From positions 32,001-96,000 of the IMG/VR virus record IMGVR_UViG_3300013947_000002: a DNA stretch of 64,000 nt; one strand, written 5' to 3'. The DNA is from a virus. Positions 1 through 50,298 of the stretch are shown here, piece after piece (the stretch's first letter is position 1; every line of letters begins with the position of its first letter). The translations under genes were made by a program, and so were the position numbers. The notes under the pieces were generated by a model, which worked only from the letters and a program-made list of their open reading frames with translations, had not been told where the DNA came from and did no database searches.

Positions 1-780
1 GTATCTTGACTTTTTATCCATATAATATCCTGTTACACAATCCTTCCAAGTTCGATACCACCACTGATACTTATACTTAGAAGATGTCAGATATATACTC
101 TTTGGTTCTTCAAGCCATCTTTTATTATTTGCGTATTTTGGATTATTCAAATAAAGAGGTTGCCTTGGAAATGCCATGCCTTCAAAAATCTGGTCAATAG
201 CAGACTTTTTCATAACTGCCGCTTCGTCATAAATTGTAAAATTAGAACGACTGCGACGGCTAGACTCGACAGGCGCTAATACGCGCAGGACAGAATTATT
301 AAGAGTGTTCTCTATTCTATAACCATCGCCCGGCTTGGTTATAACCAACCATTGTTTTTCGTAGCAATACCTGAGATAAGGAGAGAGTTTGTTAATCAAT
401 TCCCTTTGAATCTTGTCCTCAACAATAGCATTGGCCTGATCTACGGTGGATGCCGTGACAACAATCCAACAATTCGGATAAAGCATAAGCTTACACATTG
501 CAGCACAAGCCGTAACAAACGTTTTGGCACCGCCGCGCCCAGCTCTCCAAAAGAAGGTATCACTAACACCGATTTCATGTATAGCATCGCGCTGATACGG
601 CTTTAACGATATACCAAGATGAAACTCTGTATAAATATCCCAGTTGTAACGGTACAAGGAGTCCCAATCTATAACCCTTTCTTCTATCTCTGCATCGAGA
701 TTCTCATTACCAGATACTGTGCCACGCAATTTGTCAGCCATATACGCCCTACGAATGCCACCCATCTGAGAGCGCCCCAT
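1..780 (-). CDS. terL: terminase large subunit, N-terminal ~260 aa (runs off window start)
   Basis: Own minus-strand translation from ATG at 780. SD aggagg lies upstream and TAATG overlaps the upstream gene. Sequence: MGRSQMGG...KPYQRDAIHEIGVSDTFFWRAGRGGAKTF (Walker A-like)...NFTIYDEAAVM (Walker B-like). Not in the ORF track because there is no stop inside the window. Confidence 0.8.
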   Translation of the reverse strand, partial: MGRSQMGGIRRAYMADKLRGTVSGNENLDAEIEERVIDWDSLYRYNWDIYTEFHLGISLKPYQRDAIHEIGVSDTFFWRAGRGGAKTFVTACAAMCKLMLYPNCWIVVTASTVDQANAIVEDKIQRELINKLSPYLRYCYEKQWLVITKPGDGYRIENTLNNSVLRVLAPVESSRRSRSNFTIYDEAAVMKKSAIDQIFEGMAFPRQPLYLNNPKYANNKRWLEEPKSIYLTSSKYKYQWWYRTWKDCVTGYYMDKKSRY

Positions 781-1665: not shown

Positions 1666-2441
1666 TCGTTTATTTCATTTATTCAGTTGTCAAGGTTCAT
1701 ACTGTGATACCCTATCGCTAGGGGCATACGGCGTTTCGCCTTTAGTTGAACAACAGTTCCCATTGAGTTGGGCTTATTGTAGATATGAGGCCGTAGCCTC
1801 CGTCACCTCCTTTCGTCAATTATGCTTCGGATAAACCAGTGGATAATTCAAGAGAAAGTGACCTCCCTTCGGATATTCATAGCCGCCAATGAGTAGTAGC
1901 GACAGGCAGTTTCAGTATGTGCCTAGATACAAGCATTTCGTCAAAGCTCTTACTTGTCAAGCGCCATCAAGCATCTAGCGCTACTCACTGTTATGTTTTA
2001 ATCACGGCTAAGACTCGCTTGGTGTTACCGCCAATTTGGTCTTATTTAATCCCTCATCCCATGCACACGGGAACCGCAGTGCGCCTCATCTTATTTCACC
2101 CACGCATGGCGCTATGTTGGGAAATATGGTGCAATGGGTCTTAGATGTCTGCTCATCTCGCCTTTGCCTACTTATAGCAGAATCACCTGATATTTCTTTG
2201 CCGCATATCAGAAGCGTTTTTGAATATACGGTTTTCATCGTTGCCTTATGGTATACCGCAAACCTTCGATAAGCGTCCACATATCACTCATAGGCAACCG
2301 AGCCATATGCTTCATACGTTCGTATAACACACCTGTTGCTATACGCCTATCATCAAGGATAGGATTTTCGATACTATATTGACGTAGCCCGCCACAGCCA
2401 ACGTCATGCTCGTATTAGGCTCCACTGAATTGTGGATTCAC
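1666..2441 (-). ncRNA. candidate large structured non-coding RNA (~0.8 kb)
   Basis: Bounded by a near-consensus promoter and a terminator. No credible ORF in six frames. Visibly more G+C than its flanks. Many helices, e.g. gaggc-UACG-gcctc (1787-1800), TCCAC/GTGGA, and nested ATAGGC..GCAAC / GTTGC-CTAT. Confidence 0.5.
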
Positions 2442-9220: not shown

Positions 9221-9309
9221 GGTATAATTAAATACTAACGTATTTAATTATTTACTATATTATATCACAAATTTTTCTATTTGTCAATAGCAAAAATAAA
9301 AAATTTTCT

Positions 9310-9338
9310 CTTGACATTGTATTGCTTCTATGATATAT
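9310..9338 (+). promoter_or_regulatory. sigma70-type promoter (upstream of two tandem rightward promoters)
   Basis: TTGACA 9310-9315, 17 nt spacer, TATATT 9333-9338. Followed by the palindromes atattacta-gta-tagtaatat and ACAGTATATACTGT. Confidence 0.5.
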
Positions 9339-9459
9339 TACTAGTATAGTAATATATAAGTATTAACAGTATATACTGTAATAATAATTATTTTTTATAG
9401 AAAAGGGGTTGTAGGGGGAAAACCGTCAAATTGTAAACGAATTGTAAATGAAATTGTTC

Positions 9460-9488
9460 TTGACAAGTTGCGCGACATATGCTATAAT
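9460..9488 (+). promoter_or_regulatory. sigma70-type promoter of the rightward gene block
   Basis: TTGACA 9460-9465, 17 nt spacer, TATAAT 9483-9488. Confidence 0.7.
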
Positions 9489-14006: not shown

Positions 14007-14121
14007 CACAACGACAAAAGCTGAATATATGCCGTCTGATTATACAAAATACGTTAATTATGATGATGACGATATTCATGATATTTTAGACGGATATAGT
14101 AAGGCTCGTTATAAATAAAAT

Positions 14122-14177
14122 AAAAAATCTGCCCCAAAACCCTATATATGTAGGGAATGAAATGGGGCAGATTTTTA
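14122..14177. terminator. bidirectional intrinsic terminator
   Basis: A-run, then atctgcccca ... tggggcagat (10 bp), then a T-run. Inner hairpin ccctatatatgtaggg. Sits between convergent genes. Confidence 0.75.
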
Positions 14178-15218
14178 TTGCTTATTGCGCTCATTTTTAA
14201 TCAGGTCTTTGAGTTTATCTGGTTGCGCAGGATTCATGTTAATATCAACGAACTCGCGCCGCTCTTTGCCAGTGATACAACTGAGCTGACTGGTCTGAAT
14301 AATCTTAACACAAGCCTCTTTATTGATTTTTTCAAAGCTAGGATAATGCTCATAGACATCTAAGAGCCGGTTGGCAATCCATTCTTTAGTGGCTGGCTTA
14401 ATGACATACACCTCTTTCACAAGGTCGTATTTGCCGCCAAACGCCTCTTTGGTCAGTTCGCCAAGTCGCGCCTCAAATTTATTATATAGCTCTTGACTGA
14501 CATATGGCTTATATACCTTGTTGTCAACAACTTTGCCCCAATTTGGTGGCATAATCTCAGAAACAGCCTTGGAATGAATGGCTAGGCACGTCTGATGGTC
14601 TACGCTGTCTTCAGGCACGTCATGGGTGGCCATATACTCCTCACCGTTTTTATTGGTTTTGAGTTTATAGAGCCGGTAACCGCGATTTAGGTCGATGACG
14701 TAACGGTTCTTCATAGTCAGCAATTTGCGCCTAGTCCATTGAGCAAGGATATTGTATACTATACCATTGACTATGCCCATGTATCCATAACGCTCTGAAT
14801 CTGAGACGGCTTGACTGTAGGTATAATTAAAATTATCATTGACCTCTTGGAACATCCTGAGCAGATTGCTGGTCGAAGCATAAATGGTGGCACAGTTAGT
14901 CTTGAGGAAGATCTGGTAAAGGGCGGCTTCAAATGCGGCCTGATACGAGTCTTTGTCTAGCTCATTGATAAGAGAATCAGCCTCTGGATAGACTTCTTGG
15001 ACAATATAGCGGGTCGGATATGAATTAGGCACAATATCAAGTTGGCAATAGTTGCGAATTTTATCAAGTTGATAGGAGCGAGAATTTCCGTTTTTTGGTG
15101 GAATATCAACTGCAGCACATAACTCTGAATATTTTAATTCGCGCCCTTCTATACCGACTAGAGCGTCAATTAGTTTATTATCTTCATTGGACGGCAGATA
15201 TTTTGATTTGTTTGGCAT
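14175..15218 (-). CDS. hypothetical protein (347 aa), the only reverse-oriented gene in the plus block
   Basis: Start at ATG 15218 behind aaaggaaa. No motif recognised. Lies beside the DnaA-box/AT-rich region. Confidence 0.6.
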   Translation of the reverse strand: MPNKSKYLPSNEDNKLIDALVGIEGRELKYSELCAAVDIPPKNGNSRSYQLDKIRNYCQLDIVPNSYPTRYIVQEVYPEADSLINELDKDSYQAAFEAALYQIFLKTNCATIYASTSNLLRMFQEVNDNFNYTYSQAVSDSERYGYMGIVNGIVYNILAQWTRRKLLTMKNRYVIDLNRGYRLYKLKTNKNGEEYMATHDVPEDSVDHQTCLAIHSKAVSEIMPPNWGKVVDNKVYKPYVSQELYNKFEARLGELTKEAFGGKYDLVKEVYVIKPATKEWIANRLLDVYEHYPSFEKINKEACVKIIQTSQLSCITGKERREFVDINMNPAQPDKLKDLIKNERNKQ

Positions 15219-15647: not shown

Positions 15648-16433
15648 AGTTGCCAAGTGGTAACTCAAAAATCCAGATTCTGGTATCAAAATCGATATCC
15701 AAAATTTTGATATATAACGCGTGTTATATTACACGGATCGCATTTTTAGTAAACACAATTCACCTATTTACTCCAAGTAAATACCTATTACCATCATATA
15801 AATAATTATTATATCCACGTCAATAAACATTTACTTAAAATAAACATATACTATATCCTGCAATATAACCTAATATACCGCACTAGATGTTATACTATTG
15901 TAACTATTGTAATAAGTATATCATATCACTATTTTTATCAATACAATATATCGATAAAAAGTTAGTATAGTCAATATCGATATAAATATACTGATTGATA
16001 ACAAGAATCATTCTCATATGTATAATAATACAGTATATACATAGCATACTCATAGTCAATAGCGCACATTCTAACTTTTTTATAGTATAATGGCCGCCTT
16101 TACCTATAAAACAGTGAATATTGTAACTGTATAAAAACTGTATAACGGAATAAAAAGATCAGGCATATAAAAACACGCCTGCACATAAAAACGGCATCAC
16201 AGGACTATTATAGCTTTTTGTCCAGTCCAGCTATCATATACTATATAAATAAGAGATAGCCGTTAGTCAATTTATACAATTCAAACGCTTGTAATTTGTG
16301 CAAAATGTACTATTGACTTTTGCAGCGTTCTGGTATATCATATCGCAGCAGTGACGCGGGGAAGGCCGGCGAAATATCCGGCAAACCGCTAAAATAAACA
16401 AAACAATCACTTAAAAATTTTACAATATGCCGA

Positions 16434-25827: not shown

Positions 25828-26830
25828 TGTAAAGATGATGGTGCTACGAAGCCCACAGAGGACACTATCCATGGAGTGCCGAGCTGGGGAATACAGGAGC
25901 AGTAGTAAATGGAGTGAGATGAACAGCCATCATTATATGCCATATGAGGTCTTGAATGCGAATGAGCCAATGGCTGAAATTGCTCATCCAGATTTGGAGT
26001 AGTATTCAAGATATAACCTTAGCATTGCTCGTGCGAGAGGCAAGCCAAGCTAACTGCATATCCTACGTGGAATGTCTGTCTTGGATGGAAAAGAGCGAAT
26101 TAGGGAACGTGCGTGAGATAAATGAGAGAAGCATAAAAGCGGGTCACAGTCGTGTGAAAGACCGTAATGCCAAGTAGGGCGCACCAGTCAATCTGTTCGG
26201 CATAATAAAGGGATTGGGGTTGACGATTATAGAATGGCACATCGGAAAGACGATGATAATATCCGACCGGATTTGAAGATAACCGTCAAATCTATATCAC
26301 GCCTGCACTGGGGTCTGCGCAGAGTTTGAGAAGCGGCAGATACAGACTAGAGAATTGGGGTCGCGCCCAATCGTGCCACGTTAGCATCCATGCAAAAACG
26401 TAACGTCGAAGGTGATATAAGGATGTTATGTAAACAGCATTCACGAGCCGATGCTAGAAGTAGCTATGAGGTAGGAAGTCGGCTTGAGATTGAATATGGA
26501 AGTGTAAGCTAACTGGATAAACCTCGCCAATTTGGTGAGATTGCAAGTTCGATTCTTGTCACTTCTATTCCCCCACATCCATCACGCTTCTGTTTAGCAT
26601 TGCAAGCGTACCACGATGGATGTATAGAAAAGTCTAAAATCCTAGCTTTGTAAGGCTGAACACAAGAATTGGTCACTTGTGAACGGTCTAGTTTATAAGT
26701 TATAATGCTAGTTGCCGAATAGTTGAAAGCTGACCACCTGACGCTATGAGGCAGCGCTCGCCACACTCCCGATTTTAAGATGGTTGCGCAACTGTAAATT
26801 CAATTTAGCCTGAATTTGTAAGGAGTGTGG
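25828..26830 (+). ncRNA. candidate large structured non-coding RNA (~1 kb) with an embedded tRNA-like module
   Basis: No ORF with an SD. Visibly more G+C than its flanks. Helices include TTGGG-gtcgcg-CCCAA (26355-70), ACGTTA/TAACGT (26378-83/26401-06), AGCCGA/TCGGCT (26446-51/26479-84) and CCACACTCC/GGAGTGTGG (26771-79/26822-30). The 3' end is uncertain, and this could be a long 5' UTR of the HU gene. Confidence 0.45.
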
Positions 26831-30089: not shown

Positions 30090-30118
30090 TTGACATCTAG
30101 TTGATTCTGTGGTATAAT
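30090..30118 (+). promoter_or_regulatory. sigma70-type promoter of a free-standing homing-endonuclease cassette
   Basis: TTGACA 30090-95, 17 nt spacer, TGgTATAAT (30113-18). Confidence 0.7.
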
Positions 30119-30205
30119 ATAATAGAGGTGAGAAGTGGGTGCGCACCTACGATCTTTAAGGGAAGGTTGCTTGTCTCAATCTTCCCTACTCTAATAAATT
30201 AAATT
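30119..30205 (+). promoter_or_regulatory. conserved structured 5' leader (copy B), shared with 37207-37290
   Basis: Shared blocks TAGAGGT, TTTAAG, CTACTCTAA and ATTAAAT. Hairpins 30135-50 and agggaaggttg/caatcttccct (30159-69/30177-87) differ in sequence from copy A but keep their pairing. Confidence 0.55.
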
Positions 30206-32274: not shown

Positions 32275-32329
32275 TTGACAACCGCTCTAATCTATGATAT
32301 AATCCAAGTATCAAATGAAAGGAGCGGTT
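32275..32329 (+). promoter_or_regulatory. nested promoter + SD-occluding hairpin cassette
   Basis: TTGACA 32275-80, 17 nt spacer, TATAAT 32298-303. The left arm aaccgctc (32280-87) lies in the spacer. The right arm gagcggtt (32322-29) overlaps SD aaaggag. Confidence 0.6.
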
Positions 32330-32398
32330 GTTATTATGACCACTGAAAAACTGTATGACGCAATCAAGACATGACGCGATTCTTGTAATGCTGAGGGT

Positions 32399-32983
32399 AT
32401 GACCAGTACGGCGTTTGAGATGAATAAGGTGATGGAGCAACTCGAATCCGATATGCTCCTTGCTGAAGCGAAGAAATCCGGCACTAAGCCGATTGTCACA
32501 GCGGCGAATCGGATTATCAAGAATGCACAGACTATGCCGAGAGAAATGTTGTGGGGTATGTTCACCAATCAGAACGAGGACGGCTCGACCTTATATTGTG
32601 TATGCGATGGTTATGTGGCTGTGCGGTTTAAGGAAAAGCCGCTCCTGCCTGAGATTGATAGTAAATATCATGGGCAAGAAATGCAACTTGAGCAGATTAT
32701 TAAAAAGGGCGATGGAGCTAGAGAAATTGGCCTGCCTGATATTGGCGAACTCAAGGTATATGTCAAAACGCATAAAATCAAGAAAACAAAAACAACTGAG
32801 GCTGGATTTGAGCCGTATCTGCTCAATGAAGAAATTGGCTTGTGGGTCAATCCTCAGTATTTGCTGAACGGCATGGAGTGCTTGCCTGATTGCAAGGCAT
32901 ATGCTACTAATGCGATTAGCGGCGTATATATGGAGTCTAAAAATGGCGATGGGCTGGTATTGCCGGTGAGAAAGAATAAATAA
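32399..32983 (+). CDS. hypothetical protein (possible sliding-clamp-like C-terminus); in-frame leader ORF upstream
   Basis: Track ORF. The C-terminal GLVLPVRKNK is reminiscent of the DnaN end (weak). The strong SD serves ATG 32336, which is in frame but separated by TGA 32372-74. Confidence 0.5.
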   Translation: MTSTAFEMNKVMEQLESDMLLAEAKKSGTKPIVTAANRIIKNAQTMPREMLWGMFTNQNEDGSTLYCVCDGYVAVRFKEKPLLPEIDSKYHGQEMQLEQIIKKGDGAREIGLPDIGELKVYVKTHKIKKTKTTEAGFEPYLLNEEIGLWVNPQYLLNGMECLPDCKAYATNAISGVYMESKNGDGLVLPVRKNK

Positions 32984-37177: not shown

Positions 37178-37206
37178 TTGACAAATAGCAAGTATTGTGG
37201 TATAAT
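37178..37206 (+). promoter_or_regulatory. sigma70-type promoter of the second free-standing endonuclease cassette
   Basis: TTGACA 37178-83, 17 nt spacer, TGgTATAAT (37201-06). Confidence 0.7.
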
Positions 37207-37290
37207 AAAATAGAGGTCAAAGCTTGGTTGCAAACTAGCTTAGTTTAAGAGGGTTGCCTATATCAACCCTCTACTCTAAATTAAATCTTA
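37207..37290 (+). promoter_or_regulatory. conserved structured 5' leader (copy A)
   Basis: TAGAGGT. Hairpin aagct/agctt (37220-24/37237-41). TTTAAG. Hairpin agagggttg/caaccctct (37248-56/37264-72). CTACTCTAAATTAAAT. Confidence 0.55.
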
Positions 37291-38616: not shown

Positions 38617-38656
38617 AAAGCCGGGGCTTGACAACTCCGGCTTTTTATTGTATAAT
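38617..38656 (+). promoter_or_regulatory. nested terminator/promoter cassette
   Basis: Hairpin aaagccgg(gg)...(ct)ccggcttt + TTTTATT. TTGACA (38628-33) lies in the hairpin loop and TATAAT (38651-56) 17 nt downstream. Confidence 0.65.
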
Positions 38657-38676: not shown

Positions 38677-39108
38677 ATGAATACAGATGTGATGTTCTCT
38701 AGCGCGACAGATAATTGGTCAACACCACAAGATTTCTTTGATAAGTTGAATGACGAGTTCCATTTCACTCTTGATGTATGTGCAGATGACAAAAATCACA
38801 AATGCGAACACTACTATACCAAAGAAACAAACGGGTTAATTAGACCTTGGATTGGTACAGTATGGTGTAATCCTCCATATGGGCACACCATTGGCGAATG
38901 GGTGAGACGAGCATACTTGTCATCGCGCGTTGGCTCAACCACAGTGGTAATGTTACTACCAGCTAGAACAGATACTAGATGGTTCCATGATTACATCTAC
39001 AATAAACCAAATGTGGAAATCCGCTTCATCAAAGGGCGGCTCAAATTTGGCGATAGTAAAAATTCAGCGCCATTCCCATCTATGGCGGTAATCTTTAGAC
39101 CAAGGTAA
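38677..39108 (+). CDS. phage-type N6-adenine DNA methyltransferase (NPPY)
   Basis: SSATDNWSTPQDFF...VWCNPPYG...MLLPARTDTRWFH is the typical small phage Dam_N6 family pattern. Confidence 0.8.
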   Translation: MNTDVMFSSATDNWSTPQDFFDKLNDEFHFTLDVCADDKNHKCEHYYTKETNGLIRPWIGTVWCNPPYGHTIGEWVRRAYLSSRVGSTTVVMLLPARTDTRWFHDYIYNKPNVEIRFIKGRLKFGDSKNSAPFPSMAVIFRPR

Positions 39109-45098: not shown

Positions 45099-45106
45099 TA
45101 TAGCTC

Positions 45107-45163
45107 TTGACAATCAACCTCCTTTGTGGTATAATCGCTATATCAACAATAAGGAGGTTGATT
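45107..45163 (+). promoter_or_regulatory. nested terminator/promoter/SD-hairpin cassette
   Basis: TTGACA 45107-12, 17 nt spacer, TATAAT 45130-35. Perfect 13 bp inverted repeat aatcaacctcctt (45112-24) / aaggaggttgatt (45151-63). The right arm contains the SD and is followed by TTTTATTT. Confidence 0.65.
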
Positions 45164-45169
45164 TTATTT

Positions 45170-46057
45170 ATGAGAGTATTATCGTTATTTGATGGGATTG
45201 CCTGTGGACGGTTGGCATTAGAAAGAGCTGGTATTAGAATCGATTCATATGATGCTTGGGAGATTGAAAAGAACGCAATTAAAGTCGCGGCGACCAATTA
45301 TCCAGACATTATAGAACACGGCGATGTAACAAAACAGGATTTTACAAAATATAAAGACAAGGTGGATTTGCTTATTGGAGGTTCGCCTTGTCAAGGATTC
45401 AGCTTTTCAGGTAGAATGCTGAATTTTAATGACCCTCGTAGCAAACTCTTTTTTGAATTTGTCAGAGCCATTGAAGAATGCAAGCCCAAATACTTTTTAC
45501 TTGAAAACGTTGTGATGAAACAGGAATGGCGAAACATCATTTCATCATATCTTGGAGTTGAGCCAATTGAAATAAATTCAGCACTTGTATCAGCTCAAAA
45601 TCGACGCAGATTGTATTGGACTAATATACCGAATGTAAATCAACCAAGAGATAAAAACATCAAACTAATTGACATTCTTGATGATAAATCAATGCTTAAT
45701 CCGGCCGCTATTCGTGGTCGTACAATTGTTGGGTATAATAAGAATACTGTTCAATGTCTTGAGGTTAGGTCTAAATACACTGACAAATCAAATTGTTTGA
45801 CAACCGTTGATAAGGACAATGTATTAACATCATTGTCACATGGTAGATATATTGACGTATTTAACAATACTTATCCGTGGCGATACTATACCACTGCGGA
45901 AATGTGTAGGTTACAAACATTGACAGATGATTATCTTAATATGATACCTGATAGCGCAGCGAGAAAAGCGCTTGGGAATGGATGGGCAGTGGATGTAATC
46001 ACACATATCTTCAGTTATTTACCAGATAAATATAAGATTGGAGGGGAGAAAGATTAA
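45170..46057 (+). CDS. dcm: C5-cytosine DNA methyltransferase
   Basis: LFDGIACG (I), GGSPCQGFS (IV), LLENV (VI), SAQNRRR (VIII), GNGWAV (X). Confidence 0.9.
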   Translation: MRVLSLFDGIACGRLALERAGIRIDSYDAWEIEKNAIKVAATNYPDIIEHGDVTKQDFTKYKDKVDLLIGGSPCQGFSFSGRMLNFNDPRSKLFFEFVRAIEECKPKYFLLENVVMKQEWRNIISSYLGVEPIEINSALVSAQNRRRLYWTNIPNVNQPRDKNIKLIDILDDKSMLNPAAIRGRTIVGYNKNTVQCLEVRSKYTDKSNCLTTVDKDNVLTSLSHGRYIDVFNNTYPWRYYTTAEMCRLQTLTDDYLNMIPDSAARKALGNGWAVDVITHIFSYLPDKYKIGGEKD

Positions 46058-47703: not shown

Positions 47704-48773
47704 TTTACCTAGAATATGCAGCAACTAATTCATTCACCAAGTATCCGTCTAGCAGGTACGGCCCGTTCTTGAACCCTAATGCCAATTATGCTTACAGAGA
47801 GCAGAAGTTGCTTGATGAATGCAGAGATAGGGTAAAGGCGACTATTGGTGCAAAGAGTGGCAAAGTTATATTTGGTGGTACAAGTAGCCAGTTGATTGAA
47901 AATTTGATGAATCGTGCCAAGCGGAACACGGTAATCTGTTCAAAATACGAGCATGACAGTTTTTGGAGATACGGCTTTGATTCTATTGGAAATATCGATG
48001 AGTTACCAAATATTATTTCTGATACACCAGAAAGCTACGGAAAAATGCTTGTCATGTGGCAGGGTGTGAATAATATCACAGGTCAGATTTTTCCCATTGA
48101 GCAAATCGGCAATATGTGCCACAGCTATAATGCGTTCTTCATCTGCGACATGACGGCCATGATTGGAAAGGTGGCGATTCCTGACAATATTGACCAGTGG
48201 TGCGATATTGCTGTGTGGAGCGGCCATAAGCTAGCCACCGAGGGCGGCATTGGTTGTATGTGGCTATCTGACAGGTTTAATGAATGGCTGGGCGGCTTCA
48301 AGCTACGTGGTACGCCTAATCTGGCTGGGGCTTGTGCTATTGCAGATGCTACAGAGGATGCTTGTCAGAACGTAGATGCACATGAAGAATATTGCTATGA
48401 GCTATATCGCTATTTGCTTGCCGAGCTATCAGCTAATGGTATTTATGGCGGCGTTGTCAACTCAGCTATGAAACCAGACAAATCCGATGCTACAGAAAGA
48501 GCGCCTAGTACGTATGCTATCAATGCTATCATGCTTGACAATATCAATGCCGATAGTCTACAACAGTATCTAGCGTCGCAGTCTATTTATATTGGGATTG
48601 GTGGCTCTGCCTGTTCGAGCCTACATGATTTTAGAGTGCTTAATGCTTGCGGCTTGACAAATAATGAGGCAAGCAGAGTTATTAGAGTATCGTTTGATTA
48701 TGATACGGATAAGCAAGATATTGACGATTTGGTGTATAATATTAAACAATATAAGGAGAAGTTTGTAGGATGA
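47700..48773 (+). CDS. NifS/IscS/DndA-type cysteine desulfurase (PLP, class V aminotransferase fold)
   Basis: IYLEYAATN, VIFGGTSSQ, SKYEHDS, VNNITGQIFPI, WSGHKL (PLP Lys), LRGTPNLAG, GIGGSACSS (catalytic Cys loop), IRVSFDYDTDKQDID. ATGA overlap upstream. Confidence 0.85.
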   Translation: MIYLEYAATNSFTKYPSSRYGPFLNPNANYAYREQKLLDECRDRVKATIGAKSGKVIFGGTSSQLIENLMNRAKRNTVICSKYEHDSFWRYGFDSIGNIDELPNIISDTPESYGKMLVMWQGVNNITGQIFPIEQIGNMCHSYNAFFICDMTAMIGKVAIPDNIDQWCDIAVWSGHKLATEGGIGCMWLSDRFNEWLGGFKLRGTPNLAGACAIADATEDACQNVDAHEEYCYELYRYLLAELSANGIYGGVVNSAMKPDKSDATERAPSTYAINAIMLDNINADSLQQYLASQSIYIGIGGSACSSLHDFRVLNACGLTNNEASRVIRVSFDYDTDKQDIDDLVYNIKQYKEKFVG

Positions 48774-49834
48774 ACCATACAAAGGAAGATTTGAAAGAGC
48801 TACAATCTAAATCTCTTGAAGAAAAAGTACAGATTAGCTTGGCCCGTATTATTGAATGGCATGAACATTGGGATGGTAAGGTGTATATCTCTAATTCTGG
48901 CGGCGTTGACTCTACTGTCCTCAGTCACCTAGTCCATTCCATATATCCCGATGTACCAGATGTGTATTGTGATACTGGGCTTGAATATCCTGAATTACGC
49001 GATTTTATTATGAGTAAGCCAAATGTGGTTGTTCTAAAGCCTAAAATGAATTTTGTTGAAGTAATTAAAAAGTATGGTTATCCAATTATTTCAAAAGAGG
49101 TTGCATCTGTTATATCTCAAGCACGAAAAGGCAATAATTGGGGGTTGCATAAAATAAATGGGAAGAAAACAAATGGGCAAGACGATGCCTATGGAAAAGC
49201 TATGATGAAGTGGAAGTTTCTACTTGATGCCGATTTTAATGTTGATAATTATTGTTGTAAGGAAATGAAGAAAAAACTTGCGTATAAATATGAGAAAGAA
49301 AGTGGGTTAAAAGCGTTTGTCGGTACGATGACAGATGAGTCATTATTAAGAAAAACGGAATGGCTAAAACATGGCTGCAATGCCTTTGATGGTAATCGTC
49401 CAATTTCGACTCCGCTATCATTTTGGACTAAATCCGACGTACTGCATTATATTGTCAAATATAACATCCCATATGTCAAAGAAATCTATGGTGACATCAT
49501 AGAAAAAGATGGTGTATATACCACAACCAAACAAAAGCGCACAGGTTGCATTTTCTGTGGCTTTGGTTGCCATCTTGAAAAAGAGCCAAACAAATTCCAA
49601 ATATTAGCTAATATCAATCCTCATCTCTACGACTACTGTATGCGTGGCGGCAAATACAACGAATCTGGCATGTGGATTCCTGACAAGGGACTTGGTATGG
49701 CTAAAGTGTTAGATTATATCAATGTCAAATGGTGGAACGATGGCGATGAAGCCAAGCGAGACGACTATAGAGCAAAATATAAGGAGAAAGAAAAAATTGA
49801 GCAGAGCAGAACGCAACCGCCGCAAGAAGATTGA
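48770..49834 (+). CDS. PP-loop ATPase of the PAPS-reductase family (DndC/SspD/IbrA-like)
   Basis: YISNSGGVDSTVL (PP-loop), PLSFWTKSDVLHYI, RTGCIFCGFGCH Cys cluster, long C-terminal extension. ATGA overlap with the desulfurase. Confidence 0.8.
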   Translation: MNHTKEDLKELQSKSLEEKVQISLARIIEWHEHWDGKVYISNSGGVDSTVLSHLVHSIYPDVPDVYCDTGLEYPELRDFIMSKPNVVVLKPKMNFVEVIKKYGYPIISKEVASVISQARKGNNWGLHKINGKKTNGQDDAYGKAMMKWKFLLDADFNVDNYCCKEMKKKLAYKYEKESGLKAFVGTMTDESLLRKTEWLKHGCNAFDGNRPISTPLSFWTKSDVLHYIVKYNIPYVKEIYGDIIEKDGVYTTTKQKRTGCIFCGFGCHLEKEPNKFQILANINPHLYDYCMRGGKYNESGMWIPDKGLGMAKVLDYINVKWWNDGDEAKRDDYRAKYKEKEKIEQSRTQPPQED

Positions 49835-49987: not shown

Positions 49988-50042
49988 TTGACAACCTCCT
50001 GTTCATGTGATATGCTTATGGTACAAATTGAACAGGAGGTTG
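49988..50042 (+). promoter_or_regulatory. nested promoter/SD-hairpin cassette
   Basis: TTGACA 49988-93, 17 nt spacer, TATGCT 50011-16. 14 bp inverted repeat caacctcctgttca (49992-50005) / tgaacaggaggttg (50029-42), with the right arm containing the SD. Confidence 0.6.
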
Positions 50043-50049
50043 TTTAATT

Positions 50050-50298
50050 ATGAAATTTTATATCCATCGCACATTGAATTGTGAAACCGCAGATCAACTT
50101 AGACGTATTTACCCGATCCTCAGCTATTATGTTATGCACGATGAAAAGATTGGTTGGCTTGGAAACATGGGTGCTTGTATTGAAATCAATTCTTTTAAGA
50201 AGCTGATTGAATTGAACAAGACAACAAACCACCCCATTATCATTGATGTAAACGATGAAATTCCGACCATTGAAATCTATGACGATTGGAGGGAGTAA
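50050..50298 (+). CDS. hypothetical protein
   Basis: Track ORF. Confidence 0.5.
   Translation: MKFYIHRTLNCETADQLRRIYPILSYYVMHDEKIGWLGNMGACIEINSFKKLIELNKTTNHPIIIDVNDEIPTIEIYDDWRE

Follow-up and report, generated by a model that had tools for sequence, protein, structure and literature searches.

What does a consensus promoter do when its own spacer is complementary to the Shine-Dalgarno (SD) sequence of the gene that it precedes? The question is raised by three cassettes, here called S1, S2 and S4, in the IMG/VR viral record IMGVR_UViG_3300013947_000002; the window analysed, 64,000 nucleotides (nt) in length, comprises bases 32001-96000 of a single 98,280-bp viral contig. At each of the three, a TTGACA-17-TATAAT-type promoter has a spacer that complements the SD region of the next gene, and the complementarity begins within or directly after the -35. 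These units are probably RNA-level insulators against read-through, acting by termination and/or SD masking around an active promoter, and carried on a mobile cassette resembling the promoter-early stem-loop (PeSL) units of T4-like phages. The cassettes and their arms are as follows.

45107-45172 (+): cassette S1; -35 at 45107-45112, -10 at 45130-45135, SD AAGGAGG at 45151-45157, U-rich tract at 45160-45169, ATG of the Dcm methylase gene at 45170.
45112-45124 (+): S1 left arm, 13 nt in the promoter spacer, resembling the 3' end of 16S rRNA.
45151-45163 (+): S1 right arm, 13 nt including the SD, forming 13 perfect bp with the left arm.
32275-32338 (+): cassette S2; -35 at 32275-32280, -10 at 32298-32303, SD GGAG at 32321-32324, ATG at 32336.
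32276-32288 (+): S2 left arm (the anti-SD side), overlapping the -35 and the spacer, upstream of any sigma-A start.
32321-32333 (+): S2 right arm, including the SD, with TTATTATG after the arm; 10 bp perfect, 13 bp with G·U pairs.
49988-50052 (+): cassette S4; -35 at 49988-49993, -10 TATGCT at 50011-50016, SD AGGAGG at 50034-50039, ATG at 50050 of an 82-aa ORFan.
49991-50005 (+): S4 left arm, 15 nt, beginning inside the -35 hexamer.
50029-50043 (+): S4 right arm, 15 nt including the SD, forming 15 perfect bp with the left arm, and with TTAATTATG after it.

Each cassette is ~65-75 nt long; an A-rich tract precedes a consensus sigma-A-type promoter whose -10 is extended, and the promoter is followed by a short leader, the SD and the start codon. 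The first-pass annotation of this DNA had described a consensus -35/-10 promoter interleaved with an inverted repeat at 32275, 45107 and 49988, with the left arm in the promoter spacer and the right arm holding the SD of the next gene ahead of a T-rich run, and this arrangement is present in the sequence at all three sites. Its arm lengths were accurate for 45107 (13 bp) but too short elsewhere, with 15 bp instead of 14 at 49988, and 10 perfect bp (13 with G·U pairs) instead of 8 at 32275.

The RNA of each cassette is predicted to form one long hairpin of ~20 pairs with the -10 and the expected transcription start at its tip (S1, -28.2 kcal/mol; S4, -27.6 kcal/mol; S2, -25.6 kcal/mol). The outer stem encloses 26-36 nt, the inner pairs leave an apical loop of 4-9 nt, and the stem base is A-U rich. 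No dinucleotide shuffle was as stable as the native sequence (0/200; z = -5.5 for S1, -5.6 for S4 and -6.2 for S2), and S4 ranks among the 24 strongest folds of the whole genome (70-nt windows), though it lies in AT-rich intergenic DNA. When the spacers and leaders of the genome's 25 consensus promoters were cross-paired as a chance null (600 pairings), a complementary run of at least 10 occurred in 1/600 pairings and a run of at least 13 never. An Rfam search at S1, S2, S4 and 38617, a fourth site taken up below, returned no family.

At S1, S2 and S4 the -10 hexamer lies 3' of the left arm, such that a transcript started from this promoter must exclude that arm. A polymerase arriving from an upstream promoter would transcribe both arms, and the resulting read-through RNA would fold into the ~20-pair hairpin with the SD in its 3' strand and the U-rich tract immediately after. 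Hairpin and U-tract together would be expected to terminate part of the incoming transcription, while RNA escaping termination would have its ribosome-binding site locked; the hairpin may also be an RNase III target. RNA from the nested promoter would start in the loop, ~7 nt after the -10, and, because it lacks the 5' arm, would leave the SD free and be translated, with the downstream gene thus expressed only via its own promoter. With promoter-started RNA modelled as starting 7 nt after the -10, the predicted cost of opening the SD across 43 haplotypes is 12-19 kcal/mol in read-through RNA versus 0.1-3 kcal/mol in promoter-started RNA. From such features of the sequence we infer that the promoter is active, where it starts transcription, and that read-through RNA is terminated, masked or cleaved in vivo. 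The core of this idea, that termination or SD masking affects read-through RNA and spares promoter-started RNA, had been put forward in the first-pass annotation, and it can be held with moderate confidence, being consistent with the energetics, conservation, covariation, G·U asymmetry, U-tract and promoter nesting, all of them indirect indications.

The proposal depends on promoters that are real and on transcription that arrives from upstream. The pattern TTGAC[AT]-16..18-TAnnnT has 25 matches in the genome, nearly all on the plus strand, many with a TG-extended -10 and an A-rich tract upstream. The same pattern yields 4-23 matches per genome in the relatives, compared with 0-1 for a reversed-pattern control, which, together with the extended -10 elements and A-rich tracts, argues that the matches are real promoters of the sigma-A/sigma-70 type. 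Upstream plus-strand promoters are present, and no convincing terminator was found between them and the cassette sites. Between 24 and 64 kb, plus-strand terminator-like matches were as numerous as in shuffled sequence, with only 38617 above chance and the rest weak short-stem matches; RNA from upstream promoters should therefore reach each cassette.

Conservation of the pairing was followed through 63 related viral loci, fetched via the Dam protein, through five whole relatives, and through cassette families collected from IMG/VR with loop-anchored patterns that left both arms free (each with ~20 contigs, most of which come from a single gut data set). Orthologous cassettes were recovered from 20 related contigs for S2 and numbered 19 for S4. 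A hairpin of -20 kcal/mol or lower is kept in 42 of 43 distinct haplotypes, with predicted helices of 15-24 pairs whose energies range from -20 to -31 kcal/mol. Pair counts were taken from the S2-family and S4-family alignments only, the S1 and combined alignments having been left out as they are not in structural register. In the S2 family 100% of cells are paired over 13 distinct haplotypes, and the four one-sided changes, of the A to G or C to U kind, keep standard pairs in all cases. In the S4 family 95.9% of cells are paired, and the related contig L266 shows one fully compensatory change, from C-G to A-U. Left-arm variants of S1 among the relatives are mostly U·G or G·U compatible. Across 33 distinct SD helices, the internal non-Watson-Crick positions comprise 17 of the G·U type, four of the A·C type and six others, an imbalance that points to sense-strand RNA rather than duplex DNA as the paired molecule, with the reservation that the G·U excess rests on related sequences and that C-to-T mutation bias could add to it.

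The arrangement is found well outside this group of relatives. Scanning for consensus promoters whose spacer contains ACCTCC gave 100 distinct promoters, of which 76 have a spacer of exactly 17 nt and 12 have at least 9 nt of complementarity to their own leader. The same design occurs in at least seven other viral lineages with arm extensions that differ yet match, the seven extension pairs beyond the CCTCC/GGAGG core being TGTTCA/TGAACA, AAACTTG/CAAGTTT, TCAATT/AATTGA, TGTCT/AGACA, GTA/TAC, TTA/TAA and TTT/AAA. A loop-side Watson-Crick run of at least three was seen in 11/40 promoters versus 4.9% in a cross-pairing null. The 8 nt after GGAGG contain 5.8 T in hairpin cassettes compared to 2.7 after plain promoters; part of this U-rich tract is dictated by the need to pair with ACAA in the -35 region. 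Over six genomes, all of the upstream complements (at least 9 nt) to an SD have a consensus promoter inside them (8/8).

Among ACCTCC-spacer promoters the hairpin accompanies 12/93 viral but only 2/115 comparable bacterial ones, and the design accordingly appears to be mainly viral. Matches in the bacterial scan came mostly from gut Clostridia, which hints at a host group but is not proof of one. A cultured phage also has the design: of 26 promoters in the first 100 kb of Staphylococcus phage Alsa_3 (Twortvirinae, OR354822.1), two carry it, at 65051 and 81014 (L383:15051 and L383:31014), with hairpins of -23.1 and -20.4 kcal/mol; two G·U pairs occur in one of them, and one is located between a PhoH-like gene and an ORFan.

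The hairpins might instead be pure nested intrinsic terminators of the PeSL type, whose one task is to halt incoming transcription where the gap between genes is very short, with the SD serving as the 3' arm only as the sole G+C-rich sequence at hand and masking irrelevant. Such an account would explain the U-rich tract that follows the stem in all lineages, and it gains from the efficient termination by PeSL stem-loops in reporter assays (PMC2839356), from the early region having no other convincing terminators, and from a compact promoter-nested terminator in the same genome, at the fourth site.

38617-38656 (+): PeSL-like unit; terminator hairpin at 38617-38644 with the -35 in its loop (38628-38633), then a T-run and the -10 (38651-38656); ATG of a Dam-type methylase at 38677.

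The hairpin at 38617 has 10 pairs and an 8-nt loop holding the -35, and a simple terminator scan found classical terminator geometry only here. It had been correctly described as having the -35 in a terminator loop and the -10 after the T-run. The unit is kept in relatives, where its stem shows a compensatory C-G to G-C swap. Unlike S1, S2 and S4, the stem at 38617 is without an SD, and the earlier statement that four operon starts share one architecture is thus overstated. A further nested design was observed in the IMG/VR contigs L159:11194, L144 and L114, where a 9-bp hairpin (AAAAGCGGT ... ACCGCTTTT) surrounds the -10 and the start and is followed by TTTT; judged by its sequence, it is a terminator whose loop contains the -10, an arrangement known from PeSLs. 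For the three SD hairpins, an explanation by termination alone is unlikely: at least eight independent lineages have each taken the SD as an arm instead of placing a small hairpin elsewhere, and long stems enclosing 26-36 nt are poor terminator geometry. RNA escaping termination would, moreover, be masked by the predicted thermodynamics, and the two effects are hard to separate. An antisense terminator was ruled out, as the minus strand has no U-tract after the hairpin.

A second alternative is that the hairpins are RNase III processing sites, where the ~20-22 bp stem of read-through RNA is cut, the cistrons are separated and the downstream SD is destroyed, comparable to those of T7 and SP82. 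The predicted helices of ~18-24 pairs match the substrate size (about two turns), and Bacillus subtilis RNase III cuts the early mRNA of phage SP82 (Panganiban & Whiteley 1983, as cited in PMC4838370). Cleavage is compatible with insulation by termination and masking, not exclusive of it; as the whole explanation it is rather improbable, leaving the U-rich tract unexplained.

The third alternative, a feature of the DNA itself, has to be weighed with the evidence for mobility. Within the cassette families (~20 contigs each), cassettes are 92-94% identical compared to 61-68% for their flanks, a contrast that the loop-anchored fetch inflates, while the unanchored arms are conserved too. Upstream and downstream flanks form 3 × 8, 6 × 7 and 3 × 6 clusters, and their combinations are shuffled. 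In a close relative, homology at S1 is confined to a 68-nt block (45106-45173; 95.6%) that opens just ahead of the -35 and extends into the start codon; the DNA to either side is unrelated, and the Dcm gene has given way to an 82-aa ORFan. S4 cassettes stand before ~8 different genes, and the closest relatives keep S4 in front of different genes. Of 15 promoter clusters common to at least three of the five genomes, the downstream gene has been replaced at all of the stem-loop cassettes (4/4) versus one of the plain promoters (1/11; Fisher test calculated by hand, ~0.004, on sequences that are not independent). The genes downstream of cassettes encode ORFans, Dcm or a Mom-like modification protein. 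Taken together, the mosaic flanks suggest that the cassettes are mobile units sitting at gene-replacement junctions, each a homology block at which related phages would exchange flanking, mostly accessory, genes.

Further observations concern the same junctions. The relative IMGVR_UViG_3300013383_000025 (L219) is without a ~1.15-kb cysteine-desulfurase segment (window 47705-48860) and carries other DNA where the window has the Dcm gene, while its RecJ-like and NrdJ regions are 95-99% identical to the window; this juxtaposition points to very recent module exchange. Several open reading frames (ORFs) behind S1 and S2 cassettes in relatives have ATT or ATA exactly where the others have ATG (L214:538-789 (-), L229:11514-11765 (+), L253:737-1018 (+), and L227 and L231 after S1), for example an 84-aa ORF whose ATT start lies 8 nt after GGAGG. 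These may be non-canonical start codons or decaying genes at recombination scars. In the window itself, the gene after S2 (32336-32983) has an in-frame TGA at codon 13 (32372-32374) where all relatives have TGG (Trp) and a 213-aa protein; the ORF appears either to be truncated, with a possible restart at ATG 32399, or to reflect a sequencing or assembly error. TGA recoding was ruled out, given the Trp codon of the relatives.

Read as a DNA-level feature, the inverted repeat would serve as a recombination hot spot, form a cruciform or act as an operator for a protein on either side of the -10, with the RNA fold incidental. The position of cassettes at gene-replacement junctions agrees with this, as does the recombination of PeSLs with one another (PMC2839356). 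Such a feature is nonetheless very unlikely to be the explanation: the strand-asymmetric G·U positions would mismatch in DNA and on the opposite strand, the U-tract is one-sided, and whole-cassette homology suffices to explain recombination. Arm sequences also vary by site and by lineage with only their complementarity kept, on which ground an operator for a dimeric repressor was ruled out. That the hairpins are a chance or neutral by-product without function, e.g. of template-switch 'perfection' of a quasi-palindrome, which can yield compensatory-looking changes such as that of L266, is scarcely credible when many lineages agree in orientation, in the partners that pair (promoter spacer and SD) and in the U-tract, and when null expectations are far lower than the values observed.

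A number of points weigh against an RNA-level insulator, including the qualifications attached above to cassette identity, the G·U excess, the U-rich tract and the gene-replacement test. Formal covariation scores are low, with little divergence within families. The S4-type cassette of L266 (L266:290-364 (+)) has lost its -35 (TTAAAA for TTGACA) yet keeps the compensated stem, and the C-G to A-U compensation weakens the SD, AGGAGG becoming AGGATG; conversely, L218 keeps the promoter and has largely lost the stem (-9.8 kcal/mol). From these two exceptions, neither stem nor promoter strictly requires the other. The terminator geometry is atypical in the length enclosed and in the A-U-rich base of the stem. 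Finally, the SD hairpin is rare: it accompanies only three (S1, S2 and S4) of the ~21 plus-strand consensus promoters in the window and is no general rule for this phage, and the proposal that each gene block is thereby made dependent on its own promoter goes too far for a genome in which most promoters have no hairpin.

The principle that insulation by termination and masking would follow is not new and is well precedented. The phage T4 genes e, soc, 49 and I-TevI, as well as mobE of phage Aeh1, have a hairpin that sequesters the ribosome-binding site with a promoter inside it (PMC3014915). As proposed here, long upstream transcripts of the T4 genes fold over the SD or start codon, while RNA from the internal promoter lacks the 5' strand and is translated; the pairing of the SD in the long transcript is likewise predicted for the cassettes, where the SD forms part of the 3' strand. 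The T4 internal promoter is late (gp55) and the logic temporal, whereas the promoter here is a consensus of the host sigma-A/sigma-70 type. Also unlike T4, the 5' arm lies in the -35/-10 spacer, the U-rich tract suggests added termination, and the unit recurs as an exchangeable cassette in phages whose expression signals are of a Gram-positive type.

PeSL cassettes have been described in the T4-like phages RB49/phi1, PST and nt-1 (PMC2839356, PMC4122927). Like the cassettes here, they combine a near-consensus early promoter, a stem-loop, an SD, an ATG and an AT-rich upstream tract in one short unit, are repeated in the genome, are associated with ORFans, and are conserved while flanking genes are inserted, deleted or replaced. 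Their short stem-loops are found ahead of the promoter, in its -35/-10 spacer or across the -10, and do not include the SD. The unit at 38617 fits this description, whereas S1, S2 and S4 span the promoter core and the leader and use the SD as 3' arm. PeSLs also belong to T4-like myoviruses, with mini-circles between cassettes, in contrast to the ~98-kb phage here, which has a DnaE-type replication module and is closest to Clostridioides and Bacillus phages; the type of host differs as well. The cassettes work like PeSLs but are not members of the described set and, given the non-T4-like phage group, are filed as PeSL-like.

Protection of a mobile element from outside transcription is reportedly found in IS10/Tn10 and IS50/Tn5. 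The left end of IS200 combines a terminator with an SD hairpin (PMC4513863). In these elements, as proposed for the cassettes, a gene is shielded by an edge terminator and/or by a sequence upstream of its own transcription start that pairs with the ribosome-binding site; they differ in being transposons with weak promoters and a complementary segment outside the promoter spacer, as opposed to phage gene cassettes. A Firmicute parallel is found in B. subtilis, where internal sigma-B-dependent promoters bypass inhibitory structures (McCormick et al. 2021, PMC8208050). There, too, the internal start lies in the loop or 3' stem of a structure that sequesters the SD in the longer isoform, and translation of the isoforms differs up to 100-fold (PMC8208050), but the genes are chromosomal, the sigma factor is an alternative one, the structures are longer-range, there is no compact mobile cassette and no terminator role was proposed. 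The RNase III hairpins of T7 and SP82 are likewise long intercistronic hairpins in polycistronic early phage RNA; they are not described (cited in PMC4838370) as enclosing a promoter or containing an SD, as the hairpins here do. What differs from the known systems is the combination of a host-consensus internal promoter, an anti-SD in the spacer, the SD as 3' arm with a U-tract, and a mobile cassette, with Gram-positive-type expression signals.

The four units at 32275, 38617, 45107 and 49988 are located in a replication and nucleotide-metabolism region. S1 has a primase gene before it and the Dcm methylase gene after it, S2 adjoins an upstream beta-CASP nuclease gene, and S4 stands before two ORFans and another Dam gene. 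The contig has a G+C content of 41%, and its DnaE-type polymerase shares 48% identity with the enzyme of Clostridioides phage pCD1602_4 and 41-42% with the enzymes of large Bacillus phages; a megablast of the region against cultured phages gave no match. Other regulatory features were noted along the window. Back-to-back divergent consensus promoters are clustered at 9287-9460 and 15974-16059 and may represent a regulatory switch region, and a strong bidirectional terminator lies at 14110-14193. Rfam matches at gathering level comprise a drum RNA (2224-2320 (-), 43.3 bits against a cut-off of 43) and a tRNA (26498-26567 (+)). The consensus promoters at 30090-30190 and 37178-37280 (+) have a similar two-hairpin leader (AGAGGT..., then a G+C-rich hairpin) with no direct ORF; the leader is kept in relatives, including L008:837 and L013:44, and has no Rfam match, and one of the two copies stands before a homing-endonuclease-like ORF.

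A broader proposal can be made tentatively, at somewhat short of even odds: that Firmicute (Bacillota) phages possess widespread, phage-enriched, self-insulating mobile cassettes with an anti-SD in a consensus-promoter spacer, in which accessory genes that are swapped in would be shielded by termination and ribosome-binding-site masking and expressed only from their own promoter, with the cassette serving as recombination handle, a Gram-positive counterpart of the PeSL with a translational lock. The two Alsa_3 sites are experimentally tractable and make the idea directly testable. For synthetic biology, the cassettes would offer a natural and very compact part for Gram-positive hosts that joins insulator, promoter and ribosome-binding site. 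If confirmed, the finding would explain how large phages with ~20 strong promoters in one co-directional early region keep particular accessory genes (here DNA methylases, a Mom-like modifier and ORFans) controlled by their own promoters alone, at a cost of ~70 nt per device. The cassette would at the same time be a junction for gene swapping, extending the PeSL idea beyond the T4-like phages.

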